A DNA stretch of 64,000 nt from Elusimicrobiaceae bacterium (GTDB taxonomy: Bacteria; Elusimicrobiota; Elusimicrobia; Elusimicrobiales; Elusimicrobiaceae). The position numbers and the translations under genes were made by a program. Of the stretch, positions 46,217 through 60,747 are shown piece by piece; position 1 is the stretch's first letter, and every line of letters begins with the position of its first letter. Location of the stretch: positions 150,310 to 214,309 of the forward strand of contig JAGCWX010000020.1 in assembly GCA_017961585.1 (NCBI GenBank), given 5' to 3'. The notes below the pieces were generated by a model, which was not told where the DNA came from, searched no databases, and was given only the letters and a program-made list of their open reading frames with translations.

Positions 46217-46233
46217 GTTGTGTTTCTTCTATG

Positions 46234-46258
46234 AAAACCCCGCGCAAGCGGGGTTTTT
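46234..46258. terminator. Terminator between frr and tRNA-Thr
   Basis: aaaaccccgc-gcaa-gcggggtttt. Confidence 0.8.
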
Positions 46259-46373
46259 ATTTCTAATCCTAAGCAAAAATAAAGCGCAAGGGCTACACTG
46301 GCGGGACGCGCCGAAGGCGGAGGTATGCGACTAAGCGAGAACAAAGTATATCGGAAAAATAGGCATAAAAAAG

Positions 46374-46446
46374 AGCCAAGACGGGGGATCGAACCCCGGA
46401 CCTGCCGCTTACGAAGCGGCTGCTCTACCAGCTGAGCTATCTTGGC
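46374..46446 (-). tRNA. tRNA-Thr(CGT)
   Basis: GCCAAGATAGCTCAGCTGGTAGAGC-AGCCGC-TT-CGT-AA-GCGGC...GGTTCGATCC..TCTTGGCT; 73 nt, CCA not encoded. Confidence 0.96.
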
Positions 46447-46600
46447 AAGAAAATCAAATTCAGTACATATATTTTATCAAACTTTGACCTTTTTTTCAGC
46501 GATTTCTTACCCCGTCAGCCGTATTTTTAAAATTTCCACTGGATTTTTTTTGCTTTTATGCTATACTATTAGTAGTGCTTAGCACACTAAGGAGAACTTT

Positions 46601-47104
46601 ATGAACCAAGGTTTTACACTCATTGAATTATTGGTAGTAGTTGTAATTATCGGCGTACTGTCCGCCATTGCATTGCCGCAGTATCAAACCGCCGTAGAGC
46701 GTTCCCGCGCTACCGAAGCGCTTACGCTTATGAATGCGATTCAAACCTCAGCGGAACGTTATCACGCGCAACATGAAACCTGGCCGACCACCTTCGGGCA
46801 ACTAGATGTAGATGTCCCGCAAAGAGCCAACTGTGCAACTAGTGTTCCTGCCGGGTTTGGCGGCAAAAACTTTTGTTTTGGTTTTACCGGCTCCGATACT
46901 GGTGCTTTTGTTATAACGGCAGATCGCGTCAATAGCGAGGGGACGGCTACCCCCCATGCTTATCAACTGGCGACCTCCGTTAGAGCTGAAAATAACGGAA
47001 CTTATACGGCTACCCGTTCCTGCGAGCCCAAAGCTGGGGATTCCGACGCAACGGATACTTGTAACGCGATTGCCGGCGGAGCGGACAAAATATCCGACTT
47101 CTAA
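46601..47104 (+). CDS. Type IV pilin-like protein
   Basis: [29 protein letters not shown]; SD AAGGAG; C-terminal Cys pair. Confidence 0.9.
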   Translation: MNQGFTLIELLVVVVIIGVLSAIALPQYQTAVERSRATEALTLMNAIQTSAERYHAQHETWPTTFGQLDVDVPQRANCATSVPAGFGGKNFCFGFTGSDTGAFVITADRVNSEGTATPHAYQLATSVRAENNGTYTATRSCEPKAGDSDATDTCNAIAGGADKISDF

Positions 47105-47117
47105 TCTAAATTACCTT

Positions 47118-47148
47118 AACCCCCGGCCTAAAGCCGGGGGTTTTTATT
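47118..47148 (+). terminator. Terminator after pilin, abutting the stop codon of the phage cassette
   Basis: aacccccggc/gccgggggtt followed by Ts. Confidence 0.75.
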
Positions 47149-47346
47149 TTATCGGCACGCGGCTTCCTCTTGACACAAACAGTAATGCATCAGCAAAGCC
47201 CGGGCATTTTGATCATTCACCCCTTCGTCTTGATAATCAAACGGCACCGCGCACACCGTAGCATTACGGACGGCCGATTTGCTGCAACCGCCGGCGCACA
47301 TCAGTGCTAGGCATACGGTCCACACAATCCCTAATTTTTTGAGCAC
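47149..47346 (-). CDS. Putative o-spanin (Rz1-like lipoprotein)
   Basis: 65 aa, lipobox-like CAGGC, last gene of the lysis cassette, overlaps the i-spanin. Confidence 0.65.
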   Translation of the reverse strand: MLKKLGIVWTVCLALMCAGGCSKSAVRNATVCAVPFDYQDEGVNDQNARALLMHYCLCQEEAACR

Positions 47347-47482
47347 GCGCTTGTTCCTCCGCTTGTTTTTTCAGTTCGGCTTTTAGCAGGTTAAGCCGCT
47401 CTGCTTTGCGGCCGTTTTTACTTGCCAGCCATACTAACGCCGCCATGAAAACTGCTAAAAGCAAGCCCATCATTCCGTACAT
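47264..47482 (-). CDS. Putative i-spanin (Rz-like)
   Basis: N-terminal TM followed by coiled coil; start MYGMMG at 47482. Confidence 0.65.
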   Translation of the reverse strand: MYGMMGLLLAVFMAALVWLASKNGRKAERLNLLKAELKKQAEEQARAQKIRDCVDRMPSTDVRRRLQQIGRP

Positions 47483-47484
47483 AC

Positions 47485-47673
47485 TTATTCCTTCCGGCCG
47501 ATAAATGATCCGTCGGCATTGCACAAAGATAAGGCAGACAAAATCTTGATCACCTTGCCCAGCACGTTATCATCTTTTTGCGTGGGAGTTAATTTTACAA
47601 TTAGCGTAGCCAGTGCTACCACAGCCCCCACAATTTGTAATACTTCGTCATAATGTTGTGTAAGAAACGTCAT
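47485..47673 (-). CDS. Putative holin
   Basis: 62 aa, TM plus TPTQKDDNVLGK hinge, directly after the lysozyme gene. Confidence 0.6.
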   Translation of the reverse strand: MTFLTQHYDEVLQIVGAVVALATLIVKLTPTQKDDNVLGKVIKILSALSLCNADGSFIGRKE

Positions 47674-48083
47674 AGATATTCTCCTGTTCTCATCATTTCG
47701 GCCAATTCTCTGGCACGCCGCCCAACCTGCCCGGCCCAGCGGCTATCTAACATCTCGTAAGAGGTGGCGGTATAATCGCCCCGCTTGAGGGCCGCCCACA
47801 TTTTTTTGAAGGCCGCCAATTTGCCAATGCCCATGTTAAAGCACATATCCACCAGCACAAATTGGCGCACTTCGCCCAATTGACACCATCCCTCAAATTG
47901 TTGACGGACCGCCTTTTGTGCGGCGTTTACATCTTGCAACAAGATAAACTGCGCCGCCTCTTTACTGATGCCGTTTTCCAAATTATGCCCGTAACCAATG
48001 GTCCAATGTCCGGCGGGGCATTTATAAGGCATTACGTTAAGCCCTTCGTAACGCTGTGTATATTGCAACCATTTTTCAATCAT
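47670..48083 (-). CDS. Phage lysozyme (GH24-like endolysin)
   Basis: YEGL..PYKCPAGHWTIGYGHN (E..C..T triad), DMCFNMG, SRWAGQVGRRA; start MIEKW at 48083. Confidence 0.88.
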   Translation of the reverse strand: MIEKWLQYTQRYEGLNVMPYKCPAGHWTIGYGHNLENGISKEAAQFILLQDVNAAQKAVRQQFEGWCQLGEVRQFVLVDMCFNMGIGKLAAFKKMWAALKRGDYTATSYEMLDSRWAGQVGRRARELAEMMRTGEYL

Positions 48084-48264
48084 GCACGGCCTCCATTTTG
48101 GCTTCAATTTTTGCCACGCGCTCTTGCAAGTGGTTGTATTTGTCCTGTTTTTCTTCCAGGCGGGCAATATCTTTGCGGATGGCTTTTAATTCCCCCCACA
48201 CCGCGCCGGAAGCAAAAATAACAGCCGCTAATTCCCAAATTAAGTTGATCATTTCGCCGGTCAT
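48076..48264 (-). CDS. Small single-TM coiled-coil protein (holin/XhlA-like)
   Basis: 62 aa, TM then LKAIRKDIARLEEK heptads. Confidence 0.6.
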   Translation of the reverse strand: MTGEMINLIWELAAVIFASGAVWGELKAIRKDIARLEEKQDKYNHLQERVAKIEAKMEAVHD

Positions 48265-48443
48265 ACTTCAACCTCTTTAATAAGCCCATACGCTTGCGCG
48301 GCTTGTTCAATGTTGGGGTACTCATCCCATCCCACGTTTTTACCTTCGGGGGTCCACGCTTCGTGCGCTTCTAAAATATCCCAACGCACGTTTTGCACGT
48401 CTTTATAATTGCCTTCTTCGTTTTGAATTTTCTTGTAAACCAT
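48261..48443 (-). CDS. Small phage protein after the tail fibre (chaperone position)
   Basis: 60 aa; start MVYKKI with SD GAGG; coupled to neighbours. Confidence 0.6.
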   Translation of the reverse strand: MVYKKIQNEEGNYKDVQNVRWDILEAHEAWTPEGKNVGWDEYPNIEQAAQAYGLIKEVEV

Positions 48444-48447
48444 ATTG

Positions 48448-50241
48448 TTACCTCGTAATCGTCCAGCCCTTACCCGTGGCAATAGCCAAATCTTCTGCCG
48501 TCAAATCATTGGCCCCGGTACAACCTGTTACGTTGCACACTTGGGAGTCAGTTACCGTCGGAAAAGAGTTAAACAAGTTGACTAAAGCCCCTTTGTCTAG
48601 CCCCGTGTAAGACACGTTAATTTGCGGGCTTGAGCCACTAAACGGAGCCGAGTTGGAAACTAAAAATCCCTTCAGCCCGTCAATTCTTGCGCTGGAAGCT
48701 CCTCCTATAACGAATTTTGTAAGCCCTGTGGCATCTTGCATATCCAGGAAAGTGTTATCCAAAGAAACATCCCCTGTTAAAAATGCGGCCCCTGTCGTTG
48801 TTGAACTAGTTTCAAGCGGCGGTAATGCTTTGAGCATTGGGCATCTATCAAACGTATTATTGTTGCACGATACCGTAGTATTATCACACGTTATCTTTTG
48901 CAAGGCACTGCATTGACTAAATGAATAAAGTCCACTGCTTGCTTGCATATTTTTAAGCGTTACTCTTTTCAAAGAGCCGCATTGAGAGAACGCTTGATAC
49001 AAACTTACGTTTCCATTTTCGCCGTCAAAAGCAGGCAATTCTACCAGCGAGCTACACGCTATAAAAGAGTTGTAAAGGGAAGATGTAATCACTGCATTTC
49101 CCGAAGCAGTAATCACTTCCAAAGAGGAGGAGTTTCTAAAGCTATCACGCAAATTGAGTGAATAGTTCGTGGTAATATGCGCCCATAACAAACCGTTTCT
49201 ATTGAGGTTGGTTGTGCCTAAACGAGTAAATGTTTGGGTCGTATCGGTAGGAACTAATCGTACAATGTGGGTGCGCAGAGCTGAGGGATAGGTAACATCA
49301 AATCCAGTTGATAAAGCAAGCGTTTGCCAATTGAGTGTGGTGGTAGTACCACTTGCCACAGCAGACACCTGTTTTACACCGTCTACATACACGTCATAAG
49401 TGCCCGAACTCGCAAGCGTAGCGTAAATATCAAACGTGCCATAGGTAGAATAATCAGCACTGTGTCCTACCAAATAATAAACGCTATTTGGCAACGCCCC
49501 GCTGCGGATATCCATCCAATCGGCCGGCTTGACCCACGGGCGGGTTTCGTCCAATTCCTCATCCAATGCAGCAATATCCTCTTTGTTCGTCTGAACTTGT
49601 GCCACTATGCTTGAAGTAATCCCGCTATCTACCGCGGTTTGTTGGGCCGTGGTTAAAGCATTTTGCTTGGCATCCACCGCACTTTGCAAAGCGCTGTCCG
49701 CATTTTGACGGGCCGTTTGCTCCTGCGCAACGGTTTGTTCCAACTGGGTTTTGGTTTGTGCCACGCTATCCAAAGCGTTGGTTAAAGCTGTAGTTTGCGC
49801 GCTGGCAAGTTCTGCTAAAAAAGTAGCCGCATCCGTTCCGGTTTTGCCCGACGATACATCATATTTAATACTACGTTGGGTTTGTTCGGCTATTTCTTGC
49901 ACTTGCAAAGTAAGTTTGTCATATCCGTGCTCTAATTCGGCCGCGTCCAACGTCCCCTGCTGGGTAAGATGGATATCTTGCGTCAACTCACTTTGGCGCA
50001 CAAGCGTGATTTTGTATCCGGATGCCAAGGGATCCAACCCACTGGCCAACGTCGGATAAGTAACCGTATTTTGCAAGGTGTTTACTTCATAGCCGGTGGT
50101 AATTTTTTCTTCCGTACCCTCGGGTGAAGTAACGTATACATACAAGTTAGCGGCAGACAAAATAGGAAAGTCATACTCCCAAGTACGGTTTTCTCCGTCG
50201 GCCTGATAAATTCGTTTACAAATTTGTGAACTGATGGTCAT
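48448..50241 (-). CDS. Tail fibre: T7 gp17-like N-terminal anchor, coiled coil, BspA/TpLRR-type C-terminus
   Basis: YQADGENRTWEYDFPI...ITLVR, LDKLT-like YDKLTLQVQE; repeats F..C..L (FIACSSL, FSQCGSL, FSQCSAL, FDRCPML). Confidence 0.8.
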   Translation of the reverse strand: MTISSQICKRIYQADGENRTWEYDFPILSAANLYVYVTSPEGTEEKITTGYEVNTLQNTVTYPTLASGLDPLASGYKITLVRQSELTQDIHLTQQGTLDAAELEHGYDKLTLQVQEIAEQTQRSIKYDVSSGKTGTDAATFLAELASAQTTALTNALDSVAQTKTQLEQTVAQEQTARQNADSALQSAVDAKQNALTTAQQTAVDSGITSSIVAQVQTNKEDIAALDEELDETRPWVKPADWMDIRSGALPNSVYYLVGHSADYSTYGTFDIYATLASSGTYDVYVDGVKQVSAVASGTTTTLNWQTLALSTGFDVTYPSALRTHIVRLVPTDTTQTFTRLGTTNLNRNGLLWAHITTNYSLNLRDSFRNSSSLEVITASGNAVITSSLYNSFIACSSLVELPAFDGENGNVSLYQAFSQCGSLKRVTLKNMQASSGLYSFSQCSALQKITCDNTTVSCNNNTFDRCPMLKALPPLETSSTTTGAAFLTGDVSLDNTFLDMQDATGLTKFVIGGASSARIDGLKGFLVSNSAPFSGSSPQINVSYTGLDKGALVNLFNSFPTVTDSQVCNVTGCTGANDLTAEDLAIATGKGWTITR

Positions 50242-50253
50242 GTTCTTCTCCTG

Positions 50254-50730
50254 TTATTTAAATAAAGAGGCCAATGCATTGCCCAAGCGGCCCAGGCGGC
50301 CCTTTTTGTTCCCCGCCCGACGATACTGGCGCATGGCTTCCAACAACTGTTGCCACTTGCTGTTATGTTCCTGTTCTTGCGCGGCAGCGGTTGTTTGTAA
50401 AGCCCTTTGTTCTTTGGCGGCTTGCAGTGCGGCTTGTGTTTGAATAGTACGCGCCGCTTCGTCCGCAGAGGCAGACTCAAGGGTCACCCCATGGGCCGCC
50501 CACGCGGCCTGCTGGCGGGCAAGTTCAGCCCGTGCATTTTCATACGCTTGACGGGTCTTCTCCGCCGTCGTACGAAATAAATAAGCGGTTTTTTCTTGTT
50601 GTGCTTGCTGCAAACTTTCCAATTTTTCTTGCGCTTGTTGTTCCCAAGCGCGGTACTGGTTTTTCCGAGCACGCTGTGCCTGACCGGCAGCTGACCACGC
50701 TTTCAAAAAACCCGTTCCGATTTCAATCAT
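50254..50730 (-). CDS. Small internal virion protein-like (Ala/Gln-rich helical)
   Basis: Position after tail tube B; helical A/Q composition; SD GGAG, start MIEIG. Confidence 0.55.
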   Translation of the reverse strand: MIEIGTGFLKAWSAAGQAQRARKNQYRAWEQQAQEKLESLQQAQQEKTAYLFRTTAEKTRQAYENARAELARQQAAWAAHGVTLESASADEAARTIQTQAALQAAKEQRALQTTAAAQEQEHNSKWQQLLEAMRQYRRAGNKKGRLGRLGNALASLFK

Positions 50731-50750
50731 ATAGTTATCTCCTTTTATCA

Positions 50751-53336
50751 TTAAGCGGCTTTTACATCCAAACGAAGCACCGTCAACGGTAGCGGATCGT
50801 GTTGTTCCAACATCACCCCCGACGTAACATCCGTTCGTCCGGCTAAAGGTACGGTTACTTGTCCGGTTTGTAATGAAACCGGCGTATTATACGCTTCCTG
50901 CGTACGTTGTACTAACGGAGTGGATGCCCCCGCGCAAAGGCCTACTTGTCCGCCCCGGCTATTTAAAAGCCATAGTTTCACTTCTACAATGCGGTGCGGA
51001 CGCCCTTGCTGTATCACAGGCAAGGTGCACAGTTGAGCGATGTATCCAAGCCCCACTTGTACTTCTTGAGCCGCAAACGGCAAAGTAATTTGCCCATTAC
51101 TTACGGTTAAATTAGGGACCACATTCCCGTCGGCCACCGCGCAAACGGTTTGTCCGTTTAAATGCGTAAGCCCCGCTACGGCAGTTTGAGCCGTTTGAAA
51201 GGTATGCACAACTGCGGCATCTAAAAATACGCTTTTGTCTGCCTGCGTGGATAGCACGCGTGGAAACATACGTTCCACAAAGTATTGCGTACCACGTTGC
51301 ACCAGTAGCCACACTTCTTCCTGCCCCGGCTGAGGGAGCACACAAATACTGCGCACAAGGCCCTGGGTTTGATGTTGCGTCCAGGCGTAAATGCCTTGTT
51401 CTGGCAGGTACGTTAGCGACAAAAATTTACCGTCCTGGCATGCACACCACAGTAACGAATCTCCCCCCTGCACAAACGCCATTTGCGTGATAGAAGTTTC
51501 TTCAAACAAATGCCGTGCACGCAACGTAAGGTCATCACTTGCGTAAGCCGATGCGGTATCATCGTAATAAAAATCGCGCACCACTTTTCCGCCGGTTTGC
51601 ACGAATAAAATTCGCCCGCCCGCCATCACGGGGGCCACCGCGCTTGCGCCGCGGGAACCTTGTGCTTCCAGCTGGATATGATCCAAGGTAAAAGAGCCAT
51701 TACAAGACAAACTCCACTCTCCCCCCGTCGTAAAAATAAGAAGCCGATTGGCCACACATACCGCTTGAACTGCGTTTAATTGTCCCCCCGATAAACGAAT
51801 GGACAGCGCATCCGTATCCAATAAAGTATCGCGCGCGCGGCCGAAATCCGTCCAATTTCCCGTCTTAGAAAACCACAATGTTTGCGGTTCCTGACGCGTA
51901 GCAGCTAGCCCCAAACGATCTTGGAAACAAAACACACAGGCCGGATATCCCGACGCGGGGCCAAAGGATCCTTCCGCCCATTGCGCACTCCACGCCGAAG
52001 AACCAAAGGCCCGCTCACACGATACCACCAACTGCGTGGCAGATACGTAACTAATTGCTTTGACAATGGCTCGTTGCACAAACGAGTCGGCACTGAGTTC
52101 ATATCCTATTTCCCCGGTAATTTGCCCGGAACGAACACGCACTTTAAACAAATTTTCTGCGTCGTTTAAATTCCCGCTCAAATAGAAATTACTATCTCCG
52201 CTTGCACGCGAAAGGGTTTTCACCGTCTGCCAGGTTTGCCCCAAATCTTTGGAAACTTCCACGCTAACGGTTCCCGTCCACGTTCCGCTGGTGCGCAACG
52301 TCCAATCACTCCCGGACGAAATAGCCGCCGACACGGCTTCATACCCCAAGCTACCGCTTTGATATTGTGCATCCACCGTGTGAATCACACAAAAAAGCGT
52401 ATCTACGTGTTGCGGCACAAAGTAATTGCCATTGCTTTCTAAAATGTATCTGCCTTCTTGGGCAACGGTTTGGGTGCCGTCGTTTTCCCCGCCGCTTAAT
52501 GTTTGTGTGAGTGTGTGAACCGGCGTGGAAGAAAACCCCCGGTGATATTCCAACACAATGGTTTTTCCGTTCCAATTTCCGCCGGTTGCAGCGGGCGAAG
52601 TAATCTGAATAATCCCGCCTAAATTTTGTGCCGTAAACCCTTGGGAACCATACGCCGTATTAAACGCCTGGACCAAAGCAGCCGCGTTAAGCCCAAAATC
52701 TTCGCTGGCGTAAAACCATTCGCCATTGAAGTAGGCCCACACCATACAATCGGTATAATTGACGGGCTGAAAAGAAACGTGCGCAGCTACCCCTTCGCTG
52801 GTAACCGTTGTCGTTTGCGGATAGAGACGCATTTGTTTGGTTTCATCCGTATTTTGCGGCTGAAACGGCCCGCCCTTCAAAGGCACTTGCCCCAACGAAA
52901 ACTGCCCCGGAGCCGTGCATACAAGTTGCATCAAGGGATAATCTGCGTGAGCCAAGTACAACGTGCGGTGATAAGCCGCCGTGCGCAATGTTTCCAGGGC
53001 TTGCGCCGGGTAAGGGGTTTGCAATTCCAACACGTTTCCATTCCCGTCTTGCACGGGGCCGTTATCCGTGTAAAGGCGAAAATATTTTTCCCCGGCTTCT
53101 ATCACGTACATTTCCGTACTGCTAACCACAAACGGAAAAAGCTGCGCACCTTCCCCCGTTGATTTGGCACTTCCCATATACTGCGTACCTGGGCGGTTGG
53201 AAATGCCCCCCTGCGGATGCACCCACATATTTTTGGCCGTTCGTAACCACGTATGATAGGCAGCCGTATCGGTATGGGCTTGAAGGGAAGGGCTAATTTC
53301 CCCGCCGATGAAAGAAGATTGTAACGTTCGCAACAT
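50751..53336 (-). CDS. Tail tubular protein B (nozzle)
   Basis: QSSFIGGEISP, GGISNRPGT, GYPACVFCFQDRL, LTYLPEQGIYAWTQH, VGLGY; start MLRTLQ at 53336. Confidence 0.85.
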   Translation of the reverse strand: MLRTLQSSFIGGEISPSLQAHTDTAAYHTWLRTAKNMWVHPQGGISNRPGTQYMGSAKSTGEGAQLFPFVVSSTEMYVIEAGEKYFRLYTDNGPVQDGNGNVLELQTPYPAQALETLRTAAYHRTLYLAHADYPLMQLVCTAPGQFSLGQVPLKGGPFQPQNTDETKQMRLYPQTTTVTSEGVAAHVSFQPVNYTDCMVWAYFNGEWFYASEDFGLNAAALVQAFNTAYGSQGFTAQNLGGIIQITSPAATGGNWNGKTIVLEYHRGFSSTPVHTLTQTLSGGENDGTQTVAQEGRYILESNGNYFVPQHVDTLFCVIHTVDAQYQSGSLGYEAVSAAISSGSDWTLRTSGTWTGTVSVEVSKDLGQTWQTVKTLSRASGDSNFYLSGNLNDAENLFKVRVRSGQITGEIGYELSADSFVQRAIVKAISYVSATQLVVSCERAFGSSAWSAQWAEGSFGPASGYPACVFCFQDRLGLAATRQEPQTLWFSKTGNWTDFGRARDTLLDTDALSIRLSGGQLNAVQAVCVANRLLIFTTGGEWSLSCNGSFTLDHIQLEAQGSRGASAVAPVMAGGRILFVQTGGKVVRDFYYDDTASAYASDDLTLRARHLFEETSITQMAFVQGGDSLLWCACQDGKFLSLTYLPEQGIYAWTQHQTQGLVRSICVLPQPGQEEVWLLVQRGTQYFVERMFPRVLSTQADKSVFLDAAVVHTFQTAQTAVAGLTHLNGQTVCAVADGNVVPNLTVSNGQITLPFAAQEVQVGLGYIAQLCTLPVIQQGRPHRIVEVKLWLLNSRGGQVGLCAGASTPLVQRTQEAYNTPVSLQTGQVTVPLAGRTDVTSGVMLEQHDPLPLTVLRLDVKAA

Positions 53337-53337
53337 A

Positions 53338-53919
53338 TCAGCGCACCTCGCTAAAAGCGTCTTTTTGCGGCACAAAAGTTACCCGTTCCGACATATTTGC
53401 CCGGCGGGCTTCTTCCAAGTAAAGCGTGTATTTTTGTTGAAGTTGCGCCGCCAGTTCTATGTCCCCGGTTAAAGCCAACGCACAATCCCCCGCCAACGCC
53501 AGCGCAAAGCACTTTACAAAAGCCGGGTCAAACTGGGTTTCATCGGTAATCCGGCGCGTATAACAGGCCACGGCATGGGGCTGAGCGGCACATAATACCC
53601 GTTGATTCAGGGTTGGATCAAAACGTTCCGTGAAAGCCAGGTTTTCCGCTCCAGCCACATAAACGCGGCGGATAAACAACGCATCAGCCGGATATTGGTA
53701 CAAATAGTCACCCCCAGTAGCAACCGGGGTTTGTACGCACACTAAGGGCTTTTCTGCGGTTGCAAAAGCCCAGTTATGGGTACGCAACACCTCATCACGC
53801 ACCGGTTCGTAAAAGAGTTGCAACCAACGCGCGGGCTCATTATTTTGTTGTAATGAGCTGATAGGGGCTTGCCCTAAATAAGCCAAAGCCAAATTACAAA
53901 TAGTTGTTTTTGAGTTCAT
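53338..53919 (-). CDS. Tail tubular protein A (adaptor)
   Basis: ICNLALAYLG, VLRTHNWAFA, YQYPAD, FDPAF..ALALA. Confidence 0.85.
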   Translation of the reverse strand: MNSKTTICNLALAYLGQAPISSLQQNNEPARWLQLFYEPVRDEVLRTHNWAFATAEKPLVCVQTPVATGGDYLYQYPADALFIRRVYVAGAENLAFTERFDPTLNQRVLCAAQPHAVACYTRRITDETQFDPAFVKCFALALAGDCALALTGDIELAAQLQQKYTLYLEEARRANMSERVTFVPQKDAFSEVR

Positions 53920-53920
53920 A

Positions 53921-54190
53921 ATTTTATGTATTATTTTTAAAAATACTTAATTTTTAAATATTTTTTATTTTAATATCATTAAAAATATTTAATATTAAAT
54001 TTATAAATACTTATTTTTTAATAATTTATTTTTTTAATATAAAATAATTTTTAAGTAAATTGATATAAAAAATCGTATTATAAAAAATATATTATTATTT
54101 TAAAAATCTTTATATTTTAATTATTTTTATTTTTATATTTAATTTTAAATGCTGTTTTTGGATTCATTTTTTTAATAAAAAATTTTTCAG
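53921..54190. other. Extremely AT-rich non-coding island
   Basis: 9 G/C in 230 bp (53921-54150, about 96% AT) by manual count. Confidence 0.95.
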
Positions 54191-54430
54191 GCATTTGGAT
54201 AAAGGGAGGGTTAAATCCCTGTTTTTCTACGTCGTATTACCGACGACAAAAAATATCTTTTTTGGGGAAAAAGTGATTTTTACCCCCCTTTTTAGGGGTT
54301 TTACGGGGCGTTATGGGCCCCAAAAACCCTTGTTTTGCGCAAAACCGGCTCTATTTTGCGTTTTTATTCTCCGTTAGAGTTCCCAGTAGCTTGAGTTTGT
54401 TTTAGCAAGGGGCTAAAATCCTTTTTGGGG

Positions 54431-54470
54431 CCGGGTGCCGTGCCCAAACGCGGCACCCGGTTTGTTTTGC
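54431..54470 (+). terminator. Hairpin with T-rich tail on the plus strand, antisense to the cassette
   Basis: ccgggtgccg/cggcacccgg followed by tttgtttt. Confidence 0.55.
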
Positions 54471-54487
54471 GCAAGTTTTTTTGGGAA

Positions 54488-54877
54488 TTACCGCATATCT
54501 ACAATATCTGCCATAAAGCAGCTCATCGCCCCTGCGGTAACGGTGCCGGTTACCGTGTAATAGACACGCAAGTAACGTTTCATCCCGGCCGGAACCGCTA
54601 ACGCAAAGAGATTTTTTTCCGTATCTGCCAGTTGCGTGGCGTTTAACGTTGCGCTAGCCAGGGTAACCACCCCGGAAGAAAAATCAGACTTATCTGACGT
54701 TTGCAAAGCAGCTACTATTTGTGTAGCCCCCGCAAAAGCAGTATCCACATGTCCGATTAACACCAGCCGGCCCGGCACGGCGTTGCCTGCGGCGGTTAAA
54801 TCCACCACGTTCGTGCTGGCTGCGGTGGCACTAATGGTCTGCGCATCCGAAAACATCAAGTTTTGATCTAATAACAT
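54488..54877 (-). CDS. Capsid cement/decoration protein (Bbp16-like)
   Basis: MLLDQNLMFSDAQTISATAASTNVVDL, LQTSD..DFS, RYLRVYY; follows MCP. Confidence 0.8.
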   Translation of the reverse strand: MLLDQNLMFSDAQTISATAASTNVVDLTAAGNAVPGRLVLIGHVDTAFAGATQIVAALQTSDKSDFSSGVVTLASATLNATQLADTEKNLFALAVPAGMKRYLRVYYTVTGTVTAGAMSCFMADIVDMR

Positions 54878-54926
54878 AATTTCTCCTTTTATCTATCGGG
54901 CGAATTAAAATTCCGCCCCAAGCGGC

Positions 54927-55904
54927 CTAGGCCACTACGTCCTCATCGTCGCGGATGGCATCACAAATATGCACCGGGATTTCGTTAAACGTCATCAGCG
55001 GTCTGGACGTAATTTGATCCGGCGTATATTGAATATTGGAACGGTTGGTGGTCAATTTACGAAGTGCCGCTTTGACAGTACGGTTCATATACCACACCGG
55101 TTTGCCTAAAGAAAGACTTTGGATTTTCTCTTCCAAATCACACATTTTGTCAATCAGCGTAGAAGGAACATTGGTTACATCAATGTTGCAAATACGCCCG
55201 GCAAAACGCCAATCTTGCACGGCTAAACCCAATTTCCATTCAAAATATTCTTTGTAGGCAGGGAATTCATTCCCGCTGGCATCTACGTGATTAACCAATC
55301 CGTAATCTACCCGTTGAATGCCGGCTTTGGAGCCCTTGGGAAAAAAGGTAAACACTTTATCCGTATCCCACACAACTAAGTAAATAGACGAGTTTTGCCC
55401 GTTGGTGGAACCGCCGGCGTTTACTACGTTGCGGCTGGACTCGGCACCGGAGAGCGAGTTGTAACGCGCGGCTAATCCGGTAAAGCGTTCCGGCGTAGCA
55501 CCGGAATTTCCGTAAATTAAATTAGACGCCATGGAAGACGACATCCCCGCAATAATCGCGCGGGATTGGCCGCTGCGTACTGCGTCCACATTGCCGCCTT
55601 TTTCGGCCACCAATTTATCCACCACCGAGTAAGCAGAAAGCGTTCCGTAGCTTTCAACTACTACTTTGGTGGTGGCTTTAGCGGGTTCAATGCCTTGATA
55701 AGCGCGGCGCCAAGTTCCTTCGGGGATACCGGTACGTACAGCATATTCATGCCCGGAATCGAGCGAGCTTTCCGCTACAATTGCATCCCCAATAATATCG
55801 TTAGATTCGCTAAGCACTTCGGCAATAGCCAGTTCTTGGCCCGACGGGTCAAACTGCTTGGCATAATCTATTAAGTTGTAATTTTTATCTGCAATAATTG
55901 CCAT
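54927..55904 (-). CDS. Major capsid protein (BPP-1 Bbp17-like)
   Basis: IAEVLSESN, VRTGIP..TWR, IYGN...PERFTGLAARY, GLAVQDWR...RICNIDV, F.EIPV...DAI. Confidence 0.88.
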   Translation of the reverse strand: MAIIADKNYNLIDYAKQFDPSGQELAIAEVLSESNDIIGDAIVAESSLDSGHEYAVRTGIPEGTWRRAYQGIEPAKATTKVVVESYGTLSAYSVVDKLVAEKGGNVDAVRSGQSRAIIAGMSSSMASNLIYGNSGATPERFTGLAARYNSLSGAESSRNVVNAGGSTNGQNSSIYLVVWDTDKVFTFFPKGSKAGIQRVDYGLVNHVDASGNEFPAYKEYFEWKLGLAVQDWRFAGRICNIDVTNVPSTLIDKMCDLEEKIQSLSLGKPVWYMNRTVKAALRKLTTNRSNIQYTPDQITSRPLMTFNEIPVHICDAIRDDEDVVA

Positions 55905-55915
55905 AGATTTTCTCC

Positions 55916-56434
55916 TTAATTTTTTCCGTACAAGGCCTGGGCGAAGGTTTTATCCGTCGTAGCGTTACACACTGCGCCGGGGGTATTGTCTTCGCTTAAG
56001 CGCGTGGCCACCGCGTGAAAGGTACGGACCATCACCGGGTGGTTCCCTAACCCCGTTTCTTCTAACAAGGCACGTAGCTGCGGGCCGCCAAACACATCTG
56101 CCGCACGCACGGCTTTGGAAACTTCCTCCTGCCAACGAGTCCCAAACGCTTGTTGCGTTTGCTGCGCCCATTGTTCCAGCTGTTGTTTTTGCTGAGCGAT
56201 TTTTTCCTGCGCCGCACTTTGCAAGCGGTTTTCTTCTAAAACTAACCACTGCTGCAAAGCCGCGGCGGGCAGTTGAACTTGGGCAGCGGTTTGCTTAAAA
56301 GCCATTACATCCGCCTCAGCCAACAAAGAATTTTCCGGCAGAACAATCTCTGCATACGGGTCTAGGGACGTCTGCGGTGCCGATTCGGGCACAGCGGACG
56401 AAGTTTGTAAATCGGTTTGAGTAGGTTTAGTCAT
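55916..56434 (-). CDS. Capsid scaffolding protein
   Basis: Y.EIVLPE, helical Q/A core, GLGNHPVMVR.F, C-terminal AQALYG. Confidence 0.75.
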   Translation of the reverse strand: MTKPTQTDLQTSSAVPESAPQTSLDPYAEIVLPENSLLAEADVMAFKQTAAQVQLPAAALQQWLVLEENRLQSAAQEKIAQQKQQLEQWAQQTQQAFGTRWQEEVSKAVRAADVFGGPQLRALLEETGLGNHPVMVRTFHAVATRLSEDNTPGAVCNATTDKTFAQALYGKN

Positions 56435-56726
56435 GTTGATTCTCCTGATTGAGTTGATTTTGCAAAGAGGTTACTTCTGCTTGATATTCCCCGCGCATTT
56501 GTTGATACGCACCGGGCAAAGCTTGTTCAATTTCATCCAGCAAAAACAGCCCAATGCTACGTTGCCCGCAATGAAAAGCCGTGGCTAGCGAATCGCCGGG
56601 GATAAAACCGTGGTGACGCACTTGCGCGGCTTGTAAAATTTTCCACAACACGCGGCGGCCTTGTGGGTTTTTTAAAACGGCTTGCATATCATATACCGCA
56701 CGTTTTTTGAGTTTGTTCTCATTCAT
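56427..56726 (-). CDS. Conserved podovirus head protein (Bbp19-like)
   Basis: VL..PQGRRVLW..L, AF..GQRSIGL; start MNENK at 56726. Confidence 0.7.
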   Translation of the reverse strand: MNENKLKKRAVYDMQAVLKNPQGRRVLWKILQAAQVRHHGFIPGDSLATAFHCGQRSIGLFLLDEIEQALPGAYQQMRGEYQAEVTSLQNQLNQENQHD

Positions 56727-56728
56727 AT

Positions 56729-58228
56729 TTAAGCTTCCTCTTTGAGTAAAATCCCATCCACGCCCAAGCTTTCCAGCCCTTCGCGAAATGCTTTTTGATA
56801 ATCCACTTGCCACGCAACGGACGGATCCGCCTGTGTAATTTGCGCGGCCAATTCCAACCCCTGCGCTAACGGCTCTAACGCCGCCGAGCGTTGTGCTTGT
56901 GCAATGGTGGAGGTATAATCCACGTGTAATTCAAGCCCGTTTAAAATTTCCGGCGCGGGTGGCAACATCCCTTGGCGCAGCAAAATAAAATACGTACGTT
57001 CCACCAAAGGGTCCAACAATTCCGTTTTTAAACGCTCAAAGACCGGGCCCAATAAAAGCATTTTTTCTTGGCGCCGCTCGGCCACTTCGGCCGCGGTCAT
57101 GTTGGGTACTTCTTGCGAAGAGAGCATCACAAACACGTCTGCAAAAAAATGAGAGCGAATTGTATCGCGCACTTGTTGCATTGTTTGTTCAAGAGCGGTC
57201 AAATCCGGCTGGACTTGATAGGCCGGTTTTATAGCGGCTTCACTTAAACTGTTACAGCGCGTGATACCGCCGGGAAGTAGGTTTACTTCCCCCTGCACAT
57301 GGGCGGATACCATCACGGGCGGATTGGTATTTTTATCCAACGCCACCAGCTTGGTTTTTTGCATTTTTTGAAGCATTTTTACATCGCCCAGCACCTTCCA
57401 ACCTGGGCCGCGGCCGTAACTTTCCGACGTGTTTTTTGTTTCCCAACGTACGGCAACGACAGGGAATTCGTGATATCCCCCCTCGCGCAACAAGGTTCCG
57501 TCTTCCAAAAAATAAACGGATTTGTAAGCAAAGCAGGTAAAATCCAAGCATTGTTCATCGGCCTGCTCATTGGGCAAAATCAGATGCATCACTTTATGGA
57601 ATGAAGCAGAATTACCTTGTTTAATTTCTTGCAAAATTTGAGGAGAAAAGCGCGCCCCTTCAAAATGTTTTTGTAATTGAGTAGCCGTCATAAAAAATTC
57701 ACGGCCAAACGTATTTACGCGCCCTTTTTCATCAATGTCTAGCACATATTCCCCCGCTGTAAACGGACGGCAAAAAATACCCCCTTGCGGATCTTCTTCC
57801 ACCAAAAAGGCAGCCGTACCAAACACAGCAATTTCTTCATACATGGTTTGTAGCACGCAGTACAAATTGCTTTTGGCAAACGCACTTTCCAACGCTTTTT
57901 TTACTTCTAACAACCAGGCGGAAGCACCGGGTAATTTTTTAAGGCCGCGCGGGCACAAGGTTACATCAAACCAACTGCGCGACGGGCTGGTAAGCCCACT
58001 CATCAGGCCGGCCCCCAGCACCCCTACTGCCAACGAAGCTGAACTATCCAACAAGGTTTTATGATCGATCCGTTTGGCATTGTTCGGGGTTTCGCTTTCA
58101 AAAATCCCGCGGGTAGGGGCCAAATACGTAGCTAATTCTTTCCACGTACGCATCCACGGGATGCGGGTTTGTTTGAGTGCGTCGTACCGTTTTTGATACG
58201 CCGCTGTTTTTTGTGTTTGTATATTCAT
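56729..58228 (-). CDS. Portal (head-to-tail connector)
   Basis: LGAGLMSGLTSPSRSWF, FGTA, YGRGPG, P.MTAAEV.ER.QEK...LGPV.ERL..ELL.PL. Confidence 0.9.
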   Translation of the reverse strand: MNIQTQKTAAYQKRYDALKQTRIPWMRTWKELATYLAPTRGIFESETPNNAKRIDHKTLLDSSASLAVGVLGAGLMSGLTSPSRSWFDVTLCPRGLKKLPGASAWLLEVKKALESAFAKSNLYCVLQTMYEEIAVFGTAAFLVEEDPQGGIFCRPFTAGEYVLDIDEKGRVNTFGREFFMTATQLQKHFEGARFSPQILQEIKQGNSASFHKVMHLILPNEQADEQCLDFTCFAYKSVYFLEDGTLLREGGYHEFPVVAVRWETKNTSESYGRGPGWKVLGDVKMLQKMQKTKLVALDKNTNPPVMVSAHVQGEVNLLPGGITRCNSLSEAAIKPAYQVQPDLTALEQTMQQVRDTIRSHFFADVFVMLSSQEVPNMTAAEVAERRQEKMLLLGPVFERLKTELLDPLVERTYFILLRQGMLPPAPEILNGLELHVDYTSTIAQAQRSAALEPLAQGLELAAQITQADPSVAWQVDYQKAFREGLESLGVDGILLKEEA

Positions 58229-58296
58229 AACTAATCCATTTCCTTATGTACAATTTGACGCAAAATTTACTATCATACAAATACACGGAGGTATGT

Positions 58297-58473
58297 ATGA
58301 GCGGAATTATTTTGATCTTTTTATTTGTAGTATTACTAGCAGTGCCGGGGTTTTATGTGATTACGCGTTGGGTGTTCCCCAAAGGGAGCAAACGCAACGC
58401 CCGGCTTATATCCTACAGCTTGACAGCTTTGTTAGTAACTATTTTGGCAATTGTAATGTTTGCCAACCTGTAA
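58297..58473 (+). CDS. 58-aa two-TM membrane protein on the opposite strand (moron)
   Basis: SD GGAGG, ATG 58297, two hydrophobic helices around KGSKRNAR, own terminator. Confidence 0.65.
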   Translation: MSGIILIFLFVVLLAVPGFYVITRWVFPKGSKRNARLISYSLTALLVTILAIVMFANL

Positions 58474-58494
58474 TACTACTGTTTGATTATATAT

Positions 58495-58529
58495 TGCCTG
58501 CCGATTATCGGCGGGCATTTTGTTTGTTT
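58495..58529 (+). terminator. Terminator of the moron gene
   Basis: tgcctgccga/tcggcgggca followed by ttttgtttgttt. Confidence 0.7.
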
Positions 58530-58592
58530 ACTGCTGCGCGCAAGAGTGCATAAAAGGTAGGAACGCGCTGCTTTTGAAGTTTACATACGTCT

Positions 58593-58621
58593 ATATTAGC
58601 AAATTTTGTAAGTTTTGTCAA
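58593..58621 (-). promoter_or_regulatory. sigma70-type promoter between terL and portal
   Basis: TTGACA (58621-58616), 17 nt, TAATAT (58598-58593), with extended TG. Confidence 0.7.
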
Positions 58622-58653
58622 GTATTTTTTTAGGCCTATTTTGGGCCTTCTTT

Positions 58654-59967
58654 TTACACTACATCATACTCCGTTTGCGCGAACTCAACCCTGGCAGCAC
58701 CTTGCCAAGAAGCCCGAACCGGGGCCGCAAACGTAAGGGCCAACGCATCGGCTAGATCGGGGCTTTTGCCGGTGCGCTCTTTAAGTTTTTCTTTACTTTC
58801 CAACCGCAAGCGGCCGGAGGCATCGTACTCATAACAAACTTGGCATAAATCCGCTTTGAGCGCAGAAACGTCGGGCAAAATGCCCACGGTTTTAATCCAT
58901 TGCGCCATTTCCCCCCACATTTCCGCACGTTTGTTGGCATATTGACTGGGCTTGCCGGCACTGCCGCCAAAAGGCACTTCCACAACGTTGCGGTACCCCA
59001 ATTGACGCAAGCGGTCAATCACTCCGCCGCCACAACCGGCATCCACAAATACGGCGTCCGGACGAAAGCGTTCTATTTCGTGCGCCACGCGCGAGGCCAA
59101 CGTCATATTATCCATCCCCTGAAAAACAAGTGGCACAAACGCTTTCACACCCTGCCGGCAAAAAATGACACTGCGGTCCGTCCCAAAACGGGCCGGGTCC
59201 ACCCCCATAATTTTAGGTGCATAGCGGATATCTTCCAATGCGGTTTCACGCGCGCACGCCGCTGAAACGGCATCAATGGGGATTAAAATATTTTGTGCAC
59301 TGGCCGAAAAATCACACAAATATTCTTGCCGAAAAATAACAGGGGGCGTATCCTGTTTTAAGCGCGCAAGTTCCGCCGGAGCAATCACGTCCGATTCATC
59401 TGCGCGAAAAATTCCTACCCACCACACCGAAGGTTCGGCCTGAGCATTTTTTTGTGCTTGGCAAAAGAGTTCATAAAACGCGTTTTGCCCTTTGGGGGTG
59501 CCCATAAACACCGCCCACCCTCGGCGCGATAGCAACATCGGGCGGATAATTTGCGTAAATACATCGGGCTTAATTTGAGCATATTCATCCAGCACCACTC
59601 CGTCGGCATATGTACCGCGCAACGCGTCGGGATTATCCGCGCCGCACACCCAAATACGCGCCCCGTTTGGCAAAGAAACACACAACTCGGTTTCCAAAAA
59701 ATGCACCCCCGGGATTCCCTGCGCAAAGCGTTTTAAATAATCCCAGGCAATAAGTTTGGCTTGTTTTAAAAACGGTGCCACATAAAAATAGCGGGGCCTT
59801 TCACGGGGATTGTCCAATGCCATACGGATTAAATGATTGACGGCGCAAACCGTTTTACCTAACTGACGGTGCGTGACCAACACATTAAACCGATGCGTCT
59901 GCAAGGCCTGATGAATGATCCGCTGTACCCGACGCGGACAATAGTTAATTTTCACTTTCTTTTTCAT
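58654..59967 (-). CDS. terL: Terminase large subunit
   Basis: Walker A HRQLGKT, DNPDALRG, Walker B VVLDE, MGTPKG.N.FY, nuclease GVDPARFG.D and SPDLADA. Confidence 0.93.
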   Translation of the reverse strand: MKKKVKINYCPRRVQRIIHQALQTHRFNVLVTHRQLGKTVCAVNHLIRMALDNPRERPRYFYVAPFLKQAKLIAWDYLKRFAQGIPGVHFLETELCVSLPNGARIWVCGADNPDALRGTYADGVVLDEYAQIKPDVFTQIIRPMLLSRRGWAVFMGTPKGQNAFYELFCQAQKNAQAEPSVWWVGIFRADESDVIAPAELARLKQDTPPVIFRQEYLCDFSASAQNILIPIDAVSAACARETALEDIRYAPKIMGVDPARFGTDRSVIFCRQGVKAFVPLVFQGMDNMTLASRVAHEIERFRPDAVFVDAGCGGGVIDRLRQLGYRNVVEVPFGGSAGKPSQYANKRAEMWGEMAQWIKTVGILPDVSALKADLCQVCYEYDASGRLRLESKEKLKERTGKSPDLADALALTFAAPVRASWQGAARVEFAQTEYDVV

Positions 59968-60340
59968 CCCAAACCACCTCTACTTTTTCAAGCGGACGGG
60001 CATTTTCTCTCCAGCCGCACAAATTTTTAGCGGTAAACATGGCAAAACTGGCTGCGTAATTTCCGCGCAAACTGTTTTGAATTAAAATATCCGCTTGCCG
60101 ATCACGCGCTTGTTCGCAAGCATACGCAAAGGCCGGATATTTTTCCTCCCACCCGTGCAATTCTTGCCGCGTAACACCGATCTTTTTGGCAAAGGCCGCA
60201 AACGTGGGCAGTTGCGCCGCGGTTTCCAGCAAAGTAATGGAACCGTCCTTTTTTTGTACTTCGGTTACGTGAAAGGCAATTTGGTCAAAAAATTTTAATA
60301 ATTCGTCGCAAAACTCGGCTTGATACTTTATTTTTTTCAT
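59945..60340 (-). CDS. terS: Terminase small subunit
   Basis: KY..EFC, HTH-like FAKKIGVTRQELHGW, AMFTAKNLCGWR; overlaps terL start. Confidence 0.75.
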   Translation of the reverse strand: MKKIKYQAEFCDELLKFFDQIAFHVTEVQKKDGSITLLETAAQLPTFAAFAKKIGVTRQELHGWEEKYPAFAYACEQARDRQADILIQNSLRGNYAASFAMFTAKNLCGWRENARPLEKVEVVWDEKESEN

Positions 60341-60636
60341 TTTTCCTCCAGCAAGGCCAACTCAAAATTAAACTCTTGAACGCCGCCAAGTGCCCCCAGC
60401 GTTTGGGGTAAACACGCCCGCTGCGCGCGGTATAATTGCCATGCTTGCAATGTTTCATCCGGCGGGCAAAAATTATGTTGATTCTCTTCTAAAAACTGAG
60501 CGTTATACACGTGAAGCAGCGTTTGCAACTCCAAATCTTCCGACGCGGATACCAACGCTCCGTTGCAAGCATCCACCGCAGCATGAACCGCAAAAGCCCG
60601 CGCAAAAATTCTGTTTTCCAATTCCAATTTAGACAT
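60337..60636 (-). CDS. Hypothetical protein, first gene of the cassette
   Basis: 99 aa, SD GGGGGAG, ATGA overlap with terS. Confidence 0.65.
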   Translation of the reverse strand: MSKLELENRIFARAFAVHAAVDACNGALVSASEDLELQTLLHVYNAQFLEENQHNFCPPDETLQAWQLYRAQRACLPQTLGALGGVQEFNFELALLEEK

Positions 60637-60645
60637 ACTCCCCCC

Positions 60646-60737
60646 GCACCAAAACGGTGCAACATCACAGCGGTGCTTACCGAAGTAAGCACCGCAAAAG
60701 CATCTATTTGTATGGATGCCCGGCGGTATTTCCGCCG
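60646..60737 (-). promoter_or_regulatory. Array of four RNA hairpins between yfcC-like gene and the cassette
   Basis: cggcgg/ccgccg; gcatc/gatgc followed by TTTT; 11-bp stem with cUUCGg loop on the minus strand; gcacc/ggtgc next to the SD. Confidence 0.65.
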
Positions 60738-60747
60738 AGCCACAAGA

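Follow-up and report, generated by a model that had tools for sequence, protein, structure and literature searches.

The window analysed here is a 64,000-nucleotide stretch of an Elusimicrobiaceae genome (assembly GCA_017961585.1, contig JAGCWX010000020.1, positions 150,310 to 214,309 of the forward strand). From position 60636 down to 47149 it carries 18 co-oriented open reading frames (ORFs) on the minus strand, which form a 13.5-kb set of packaging, head, short-tail, fibre and lysis genes of podovirus type. This cluster is inherited vertically within its host genus and is kept by purifying selection. Judging from its genes and their descent, it is probably a host-owned particle system resembling a gene transfer agent (GTA) rather than a prophage.

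Genes of the cluster

Sequence searches against PHROGs, Pfam and the PDB were used to annotate the ORFs, with the results listed below from the first gene of the cluster to the last. The two sizeable non-coding gaps are included.

60337-60636, minus strand: g02, first gene of the cluster, 99 amino acids; no PHROG or Pfam match
59945-60340, minus strand: terS, small terminase subunit, 131 amino acids; phrog_3064 (E = 5e-18); a helix-turn-helix (HTH)-like segment is kept
58654-59967, minus strand: terL, large terminase subunit, 437 amino acids; phrog_2 (E = 9e-55), Terminase_6N
58229-58653: terL-portal gap, 425 bp, with a promoter-like site inside
56729-58228, minus strand: portal of T7 type, 499 amino acids; Pfam Head-tail_con (E = 2e-145), phrog_332
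56427-56813, minus strand: g06, Bbp19-like head protein; Pfam Phage_Bbp19 (E = 1e-13), phrog_528
55916-56434, minus strand: scaffold, 172 amino acids; phrog_458
54927-55904, minus strand: major capsid protein (MCP), 325 amino acids, of BPP-1/epsilon15 GP7 type; Pfam GP7 (E = 2e-110)
54488-54877, minus strand: g09, Bbp16-like cement (decoration) protein; Pfam Bbp16 (E = 1e-19), phrog_427
53920-54487: head-tail non-coding gap, 568 bp, with a hairpin and an AT tract
53338-53919, minus strand: tubA, tail tubular protein A or adaptor (T7 gp11-like); phrog_394 (E = 2e-43)
50751-53375, minus strand: tubB, tail tubular protein B or nozzle (T7 gp12-like), 874 amino acids; phrog_376 (E = 5e-167), PDB 8CK1 'Tail Nozzle' (E = 5e-79)
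50254-50751, minus strand: g12, gp14-like internal virion protein, 165 amino acids; similar to proteins of prophage G010:C9 and of genome G021
48448-50241, minus strand: fibre, 597 amino acids; T7-type N-terminal adaptor and C-terminal BspA-type leucine-rich repeats (LRR)
47149-48482, minus strand: lysis cassette of six ORFs including lysozyme and spanins, as follows
48261-48482 and 48076-48264, minus strand: small ORFs, the second weakly holin-like
47670-48167, minus strand: lysozyme; Phage_lysozyme (E = 3e-17), phrog_7
47485-47673, minus strand: protein of 62 amino acids
47264-47524, minus strand: i-spanin, Rz-like; phrog_1026
47149-47346, minus strand: o-spanin lipoprotein

The podovirus module is in canonical order, running from the T7-type portal through the Bbp19 protein, the GP7-type capsid and the Bbp16 protein to the gp11/gp12-type adaptor and nozzle. 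The best structural matches of the MCP are PDB entries 3J4U (BPP-1, E = 1e-67), 3J40 and 8CJZ. A Walker-A-like LGKT motif can be read in terL, and terS has a weak match to Pfam GP3_package (P22 gp3) that falls below the cut-off. The true start of g06 is probably the internal ATG at about 56729. In the fibre, phrog_1640 and other families match residues 1-125 and Pfam LRR_5 matches residues 416-482.

PHROG and Pfam annotation finds no integrase, replication or early gene among the 18 ORFs, as the initial annotation of this DNA had stated. There is no large ejection protein in the cluster and there are no att repeats at it. PHROGs identify no sheath or tube gene among the ORFs, the tail genes being of podovirus type. 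Nor does the whole 1.49-Mb genome contain a homologue of the integrase, the replication initiator, the 660-residue protein or the giant internal protein of the related prophage G010:C9, described below. On its annotated genes, the element is thereby shown to be non-autonomous, with a complete set of genes for morphogenesis, packaging and lysis. One of the features by which GTAs and other viriforms are recognised is that phage-like particle genes lie in the chromosome of a cell and that those for autonomous replication, integration or excision are lacking (Lang et al. 2012; Kogay et al. 2022, PMC9662315).

The initial annotation can be followed in most other respects. Its coordinates and gene calls all survived a re-check of the ORFs in 47149-60636, and its description is accurate as far as it goes, but it missed the two non-coding gaps, a tRNA gene and a nearby repressor (the last being the subject of a separate finding). 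It had also called the composition host-like, and in GC content and codon usage the genes of the cluster indeed fall between the 8th and the 76th percentile of the genes of the genome. Finally, it placed the last stop codon against the terminator of a pilin gene and the first ORF 111 bp behind a transporter, and both positions agree with the Pfam annotation of the flanks and a hairpin scan, which gave the following features.

46373-46446, minus strand: tRNA-Thr(CGT), found by Rfam and ARAGORN
46601-47104, plus strand: pilin (type IV pilin-like); Pfam N_methyl, and ComP_DUS with 29.5 bits against a cut-off of 27.3
47118-47142, plus strand: hairpin terminator with a 10-bp stem (8 GC pairs) and a T-run, common to the convergent pilin gene and the cluster
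60748-62136, minus strand: host gene for a DcuC-family anaerobic C4-dicarboxylate carrier; Pfam PF03606 (E = 3e-94)

On the lysis side, RRF, OmpA and folate genes lie beyond the pilin and the tRNA. On the other side, DcuC lies 111 bp upstream of the first ORF, and a repressor of S24 type (S24rep) and HydF lie farther upstream.

Distribution, descent and selection

The host genus consists of gut and rumen Elusimicrobiaceae; related records carry the names 'Candidatus Avelusimicrobium' or 'uncultured Elusimicrobium' and come from rumen, chicken, horse and human gut. We searched the family with the portal of the window; the genus was represented by 96 species genomes and nine sister genera by 49 genomes. 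An intact single-copy portal, free of internal stops and 53-96% identical, was found in 91 of the 96 species genomes. A 92nd species has the capsid gene, its portal falling at a contig break, which gives 92/96 in total. The cluster portal was found in none of the 49 sister-genus genomes, where the only portals are unrelated ones at 25-34% identity. The gene order from terS to the spanins is kept in relatives with enough flank, and identity across the genus is 62-93% for terL and 83-99% for the MCP.

The position of the cluster is conserved at its lysis end. In addition to the window, seven relatives were checked for the orthologous pilin, and in all seven it abuts the o-spanin gene. On the same side, tRNA-Thr(CGT) is found in 9/9 sequences that cover this flank (eight relatives and the window), at a distance from the cluster that ranges from 36 bp from the o-spanin gene in G004 up to 7 kb elsewhere. 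This tRNA gene is a possible ancestral integration site. We note that the genome contains about 70 type IV pilin-like N-terminal matches in 1.49 Mb, so that a pilin neighbour would be met by chance about every 20 kb. The adjacency of the pilin is therefore best read as a flank marker, and the idea that the pilin is a functional partner, suggested by its ComP_DUS match, was dropped for this reason. The upstream flank differs between two deep clades, the loci of the distant clade being without S24rep and DcuC as neighbours. The presence of DcuC varies as well: many relatives have it at this place, while in others S24rep is upstream of the cluster with no DcuC in between.

Four genomes lack both portal and capsid (G078, G022, G064 and G017). 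Three of these (G078, G022 and G064) occupy separate nested positions in the RpoB tree, and their absences are therefore independent and recent. In G064 (G064:C12:1-6000, L251), S24rep, terS and terL are kept and the portal, at about residue 53, is fused to the cement protein at about residue 87, a deletion that removes all of the head genes; the cluster of its sister species (L089) is intact. In G017 only S24rep, DcuC and a fragment of g02 are kept. The G078 contig ends 0.8 kb after RRF and the neighbourhood is different in G022, so that loss and incompleteness of the metagenome-assembled genome (MAG) both fit.

The cluster was also seen in three records titled Spirochaetes, Muribaculaceae and Duodenibacillus (L051, L058 and L078, respectively). 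The RpoB of L051, and those of L058 and L078, which are placed together with the cluster, fall inside the tree of the Elusimicrobiaceae genus. Wrong labels on the records, or wrong binning of the contigs, are the probable explanation.

The descent of the cluster was compared with that of its host in 38 species for which RpoB, terL, portal and capsid are all full-length, by setting a tree of terL, portal and MCP against the RpoB tree. The two trees have 22 of 35 bipartitions in common; with shuffled labels, the mean is 0.2 and the maximum 3. When the comparison is restricted to splits with UFBoot support of at least 95 (22 for RpoB, 23 for the cluster), 18 are common and 2 are conflicting. Pairwise distances in the cluster and in RpoB are correlated with r = 0.94, over an RpoB divergence within the genus of up to 18%. 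With the evolutionary rate of RpoB set at 1, that of the capsid is 0.9, that of terL 1.4 and that of the portal 2.2.

Ratios of nonsynonymous to synonymous substitution (dN/dS) were calculated pairwise by NG86 for three close species pairs, with dS of 0.15-0.7 for most genes. The values are 0.016-0.03 for the capsid, 0.035-0.04 for the tail adaptor, 0.035-0.15 for g12, 0.04-0.08 for the portal, 0.06 for terS, 0.06-0.13 for terL, 0.09-0.10 for the nozzle and 0.12-0.22 for the fibre. The scaffold reaches 0.20-0.30, and some small ORFs also reach about 0.3. The host neighbour DcuC, as a reference, has 0.02-0.04, and the S24 repressor has 0.017. The reading frame of terL was free of internal stops in 40 loci, as was that of the portal in 91 genomes, of the capsid in 45 loci, of the nozzle in 33 loci and of the adaptor in 34 loci.

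These results show that the cluster is vertically inherited and kept by purifying selection. Presence in 92/96 species, a fixed flank, congruent trees and purifying selection are together what is found for a GTA or viriform that evolves in concert with its host. They also bear on the initial annotation, which had read the cluster as a maintained, domesticated particle system and had named as checks the same cluster at the same locus across the family, gene trees congruent with the host and dN/dS well below 1. The same cluster is indeed present throughout the genus (92/96 species, against 0/49 in the sister genera), with the pilin and tRNA-Thr(CGT) at its lysis end; the trees agree in 22/35 splits (r = 0.94); and the named genes for head, packaging, tail and fibre have dN/dS of 0.016-0.22. 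Patchy distribution, varying loci, a full prophage at the site and relaxed selection, which had been named as outcomes that would speak for something else, were not seen. Distribution and locus, tree congruence and dN/dS thus all support the reading of a maintained, domesticated system.

Genuine prophages related to the cluster occur in only two of the 96 species (G010:C9, 13000-52999, L235/L236; and G105:C2, L237/L238). Both adjoin tRNA-Ser(CGA). G010:C9 encodes an integrase and a replication initiator as well as a methyltransferase and a polynucleotide kinase; between its nozzle and fibre genes lie those for internal virion proteins of 202, 660 and 2841 residues, the largest being phrog_9880. 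IMG/VR contigs L100-L110 (e.g. IMGVR_UViG_3300028832_000556) are of the same type. The gene order from terL to the nozzle is the same in these phages as in the cluster. The two prophages are 49-51% identical to the cluster in the portal and 62-71% in the capsid; in terL they are 27-29% identical, and the cluster terL is only 26-29% identical to the TerL of its nearest real phages. No cluster-type contig was found among 2.9 million IMG/VR contigs, in which the best portal is 51% identical. The cluster itself is not a functional temperate prophage: it is near-universal and vertical, and is without integrase, att sites and a replication module.

In a FastTree tree of portal and capsid with 103 sequences, all 45 of the 45 cluster copies form one clade, which is sister to the phages of G010:C9 type (support 1.0 for the parent node). 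The tree points to a single domestication event, from a lineage of phages that infects the genus to this day.

Switch, non-coding gaps and exchanged parts

Two further features lie upstream of the cluster and are possibly involved in its control.

62553-63239, plus strand: S24rep, CI-like repressor; Pfam HTH_3 and Peptidase_S24; 1.9 kb upstream of the cluster
62475-62503, minus strand: best sigma-70-like promoter match of the region, TTGACA-17-TATACT with TG; 11/12 consensus matches

A GDSM serine and a downstream lysine can be read in the S24rep sequence. The genome encodes three S24 proteins, this one included, and S24rep is distinct from a 213-residue S24 protein that is possibly LexA. In the consensus scan, the match at 62475-62503 faces DcuC, g02 and the terminase genes, with S24rep divergent from it, and a strong promoter-like site was also found at 63256-63283 (plus strand). 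S24rep orthologues occur throughout the genus, and a g02 homologue is always their divergent partner. The pair of the distant clade (L258-L262, among them G021:C1:427776-428471) lies away from the structural genes, 75 kb away in G021, so that there are two loci. Hidden Markov model matches to g02 stand beside S24rep in all five of the five distant-clade loci with enough flank, and in none of the real phages examined. The motif LEN.IF.RA...G.L...LQ.L..VYN.FF..EN is conserved in g02. An AlphaFold model of g02 has a pLDDT of 78 overall and is confident for residues 1-55; a Foldseek search with it gave no PDB match with E < 1. Relatives of g02 number only nine, all unannotated, in a database of 5.8 billion proteins. 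We infer from these sequences that S24rep/g02 may be what is left of the immunity switch of the phage ancestor, g02 being a candidate trans-acting activator. As regards an operator, only weak direct and inverted repeats were found in the S24rep-DcuC intergenic region; no shared operator that would tie the repressor to the internal promoters came to light, and no host regulator was identified.

The head-tail gap (53920-54487) contains a stable, GC-rich hairpin at about 54430-54460, followed by a tract of about 260 bp and about 95% A+T that extends up to the tubA start codon. In the orthologous gaps (loci L035-L099), a 150-bp window of 3-13% GC lies just upstream of tubA in 39/39 relatives with an assembled gap, compared with about 47% GC for the genome. 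Of 61 MAG contigs, 23 end within 1.2 kb after g09, at the AT tract. The real phage relatives have a head-tail gap of only about 70-100 bp, from which the AT tract is absent. The tract may serve as a promoter, bind a silencer or act as an unwinding element. Curved DNA was considered and rejected, as the A/T runs of the 39 orthologous tracts have no 10-11-bp phasing. In 46000-64000 a sensitive Rfam scan gave tRNA-Thr as its only match, with nothing at the AT tract or at sites flagged earlier as possible RNAs (63256-63603 and 62303-62503).

The gap between terL and portal has its promoter-like site at 58621-58593 on the minus strand. In the relatives this gap is a cargo hotspot that ranges from 0.35 to 7.6 kb, and the window (58229-58653) has it in the 'empty' state. 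The cargo consists of one to five tandem co-oriented paralogues of 360-510 residues, with weak similarity to the ChaN/Tiki superfamily (PF04187). Filled hotspots were found in L048, L049, L050, L053, L054, L055, L068, L069, L080, L088, L089 and L099, that of L089 also containing a ComP-like pilin.

Other parts have been lost or exchanged. The g12 protein has 34% identity with an internal virion protein (phrog_418) of G010:C9 and 30% with its orthologue in G021, which has a Pfam T7_gp14 match just below the cut-off. Rather than a set of proteins equivalent to gp14, gp15 and gp16, the lineage of the window has this 165-residue gp14-like protein as its sole ejection-type protein, and the giant ejection protein is found in no member of the cluster family. 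In the mid and distant clades there remain a gene for a membrane protein on the opposite strand, a 175-residue protein, a gp14-like protein and a protein of about 440-540 residues. The clade of the window is the most reduced form, at 13.5 kb compared with about 18 kb. The opposite-strand membrane protein gene (235-280 residues, dN/dS 0.16-0.18) lies just downstream of the nozzle in most relatives, for example in G021 (14662-15441) and L037 (14097-14828), and is missing from the window and L038. The scaffold has 172 residues, compared with 263 in its homologue in G010:C9.

The endolysin has been swapped in place, with Phage_lysozyme in the window (47670-48167) and Peptidase_M15_4 in the distant clade (8849-9268 of the merged G021 locus). 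In the fibre, only the N-terminal 25-40% is conserved in most relatives and the C-termini have been exchanged. Function has thus been preserved while parts were replaced.

Proposed function and comparison with known systems

We propose, with moderate confidence, that the cluster is a domesticated, host-owned podovirus remnant that acts as a GTA-like viriform. Its history and action may be sketched as follows. As the comparisons above show, the ancestor of the genus acquired a temperate podovirus of BPP-1/T7 type once, near tRNA-Thr(CGT); genes for integration, replication and large ejection proteins were then lost, and the rest has since descended vertically under purifying selection. The action is a proposal. 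In most cells the CI-like S24 repressor, probably cleavable with RecA, would keep the divergent promoter shut. Induction in a few cells would turn on g02 and the terminase genes, then the head module from the promoter in the terL-portal gap, and then the tail and lysis module behind the AT-rich tract. Capsids of BPP-1 type would assemble on the T7-type portal, to be filled by TerS and TerL with chromosomal DNA, either from random starts or as headfuls from a pac-like site as in lateral transduction. Because the element has no excision or replication of its own, the heads would be filled with chromosomal DNA only. Holin, endolysin and spanins would lyse the producer cell, and the particles would bind related cells through their LRR-tipped fibres. 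Since the gp14-like protein is the sole pore protein left, the DNA would be delivered to the periplasm and imported by the ComEC pathway of the recipient itself, as for RcGTA; ComEC is present in the genome, and together with the intact fibre and nozzle and the gp14-like protein it would permit delivery to recipients.

Several points weigh against this proposal. Purifying selection means that the genes are used, and says nothing about gene transfer as the use. The PDB entries 3J4U, 3J40 and 8CJZ are each listed with seven chains, which we read as the asymmetric unit of a T=7 capsid. T=7 shells of BPP-1 and epsilon15 hold about 40 kb. By analogy, the heads may hold about 40 kb, more than the 13.5-kb locus and unlike classical GTAs, and with T=7 homologues a capsid too small for its own locus, as is usual for a GTA, may not apply here. 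The scaffold is, however, shortened (172 residues compared with 263), and the true head size may differ. The HTH-like segment of terS means that packaging may start at a defined site. The link of S24rep/g02 to the structural genes is drawn only from adjacency and co-conservation. The remains in G064 and G017 are real scars of decay or deletion. In addition, the support for cluster monophyly is modest (0.61 in FastTree), the host tree is built on one marker, RpoB, and the genomes compared are all MAGs.

The host may also keep the particle for another purpose, as an analogue of PBSX-like killer particles or phage-tail-like bacteriocins directed at competitors, or for programmed lysis by which vesicles, DNA or public goods are set free, packaged DNA being a by-product. 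Vertical descent and selection speak equally for this explanation, and the repressor-controlled, lysis-ending layout is like that of the SOS-inducible PBSX. Fast diversification of the fibre C-terminus would suit strain-specific targeting, and with the large ejection proteins lost, the DNA may never reach the cytoplasm. We nevertheless regard such a purpose as unlikely: the terminase dN/dS of 0.06-0.13 indicates that DNA packaging is itself selected, and a role in lysis alone needs no portal, terminase, nozzle or fibre. We know of no podovirus-type killer particle.

An anti-phage or satellite-like device, whose proteins would hinder or exploit related podoviruses, for example by capsid mis-assembly or redirected packaging, appears improbable. 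Real related phages do infect the same genus (G010:C9, G105:C2 and IMG/VR L100-L110), and the combination of head and tail proteins 40-70% identical to theirs with a terminase of different type (26-29%) recalls satellites with a packaging specificity of their own. Here, however, there is no excision, replication or pac-carrying mobile unit that could gain, a complete lysis cassette and a fibre would be superfluous for interference, and the related phages are rare (2/96 species) while the cluster is near-universal.

We consider it very unlikely that the cluster is a still mobile virus, in the form of a helper-dependent or site-specific re-infecting phage or of one whose missing modules lie elsewhere. 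The tRNA gene near the lysis end, the retained CI-like repressor and the separate loci for switch and structural genes in the distant clade would fit such a virus, but the cluster co-diverges with its host and its upstream flank differs between the two deep clades. It has no att repeats or integrase, homologues of the phage genes for replication or integration are missing from the whole genome, and the 2.9 million IMG/VR contigs include no genome of its type. The results on co-phylogeny and dN/dS led us to reject a prophage that re-integrates at one site. A prophage remnant that is grounded and defective, without present function and in slow decay, would account for the absence of integrase and replication genes, for the most reduced state of the window's lineage (with a protein of about 500 residues and the membrane protein gene gone) and for the deletions in two species, but is hardly credible, as a neutral remnant was rejected on the same two grounds: orthologues are intact in 92/96 species across an RpoB divergence of up to 18%, with dN/dS of 0.016-0.22 comparable to host genes and a capsid as slow as RpoB, when neutral decay would have wrecked the reading frames.

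The GTA-like viriform is therefore the explanation that we prefer. A more detailed version of it, taken as a whole, is tentative and rather doubtful: that the cluster represents an independent GTA family of BPP-1 type, in which an SOS switch can act in trans from 75 kb, the AT tract gates the tail and lysis genes, import depends on the recipient's competence machinery because the trans-envelope ejection proteins have been discarded, and, excision being impossible, large contiguous chromosome segments are carried in heads that may be of 40-kb T=7 type, combining features of GTAs and of lateral transduction. If the heads are indeed T=7, each particle would carry a piece of about 40 kb of the 1.5-Mb genome, or about 3% of it.

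Few GTAs are known, and almost all of those studied are alphaproteobacterial; this locus extends the phenomenon to the poorly cultured Elusimicrobiota. As an evolutionary case it is unusually clean, being near-universal, at a fixed locus, co-diverging with its host and under strong selection, with genuine prophages as an internal control. It also captures intermediates of domestication, in the stepwise loss of ejection proteins, a switch that is retained and then unlinked, and two species that are natural knock-outs. How common phage domestication is in gut microbiomes has only recently become testable, with FpGTA (PMC12946183).

FpGTA of Faecalibacterium prausnitzii was reported in 2026 (Nat Commun) as the first podovirus-like GTA-like element (PMC12946183). 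Like it, the present cluster comprises terS, terL, portal, scaffold and capsid genes together with short-tailed tail, fibre and lysis genes on the chromosome of a gut bacterium, is without replication and integration genes, and is conserved across a genus. Compared by their descriptions, the host of FpGTA belongs to the Bacillota and that of the cluster to the diderm Elusimicrobiota. FpGTA is split into operons of 10.5 and 5.5 kb, its TerS has no DNA-binding domain, and its particles, which have experimental support, are about 40 nm in size (T=3 proposed) with 8.4-8.9 kb of DNA (PMC12946183). Unlike FpGTA, the present element has one locus of 13.5-18 kb, a BPP-1-type capsid of the T=7 family, an HTH-like TerS and a CI-like switch, and is known from its genes alone.

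With the alphaproteobacterial GTAs of RcGTA type (Rhodogtaviriformidae) the cluster has in common a virion-only set of about 15 kb, vertical descent and purifying selection. RcGTA is released by lysis and its DNA probably reaches the periplasm, followed by ComEC-type import, as is proposed here. RcGTA is derived from a siphovirus and has small capsids of about 4 kb, whereas the present element is derived from a podovirus; and RcGTA is controlled by the host regulators CtrA and GafA and by quorum sensing, with extra loci dispersed, whereas the present element keeps a repressor of phage type. PBSX and PBSZ of Bacillus are likewise defective, non-replicating, conserved within their lineage, repressor-controlled and lysis-ending. 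PBSX-like elements are contractile-tailed killer particles under an Xre-type repressor. PBSX differs in having a myovirus-like contractile tail, in killing sensitive strains, in its size of about 28-33 kb and in its Firmicutes host; the tail of the cluster is of podovirus type. PBSX packages host DNA in fragments of 13.4 kb (as quoted in PMC12946183).

The phages BPP-1, BcepC6B and KL4 and the Caulobacter and Pseudomonas AF-type podoviruses have the same head families, adaptor and nozzle, with capsids 38-40% identical to that of the cluster. Phages of the BPP-1 group are autonomous, with 42-46 kb and genes for replication, lysogeny and ejection proteins, which the cluster lacks, and are more than three times as long as the cluster. 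BPP-1 carries a diversity-generating retroelement; no reverse transcriptase gene is annotated among the ORFs of the cluster. Dd1 of Desulfovibrio desulfuricans is a short-tailed particle that is reported to contain about 13.6 kb of host DNA, and we know of no genes that have been assigned to it. In the literature that could be searched we found no paper linking Elusimicrobia to a GTA or a conserved prophage. What is new here is an independent domestication, in a new phylum and from a different phage lineage, with a CI-like switch, an AT tract and a stepwise loss of ejection proteins.

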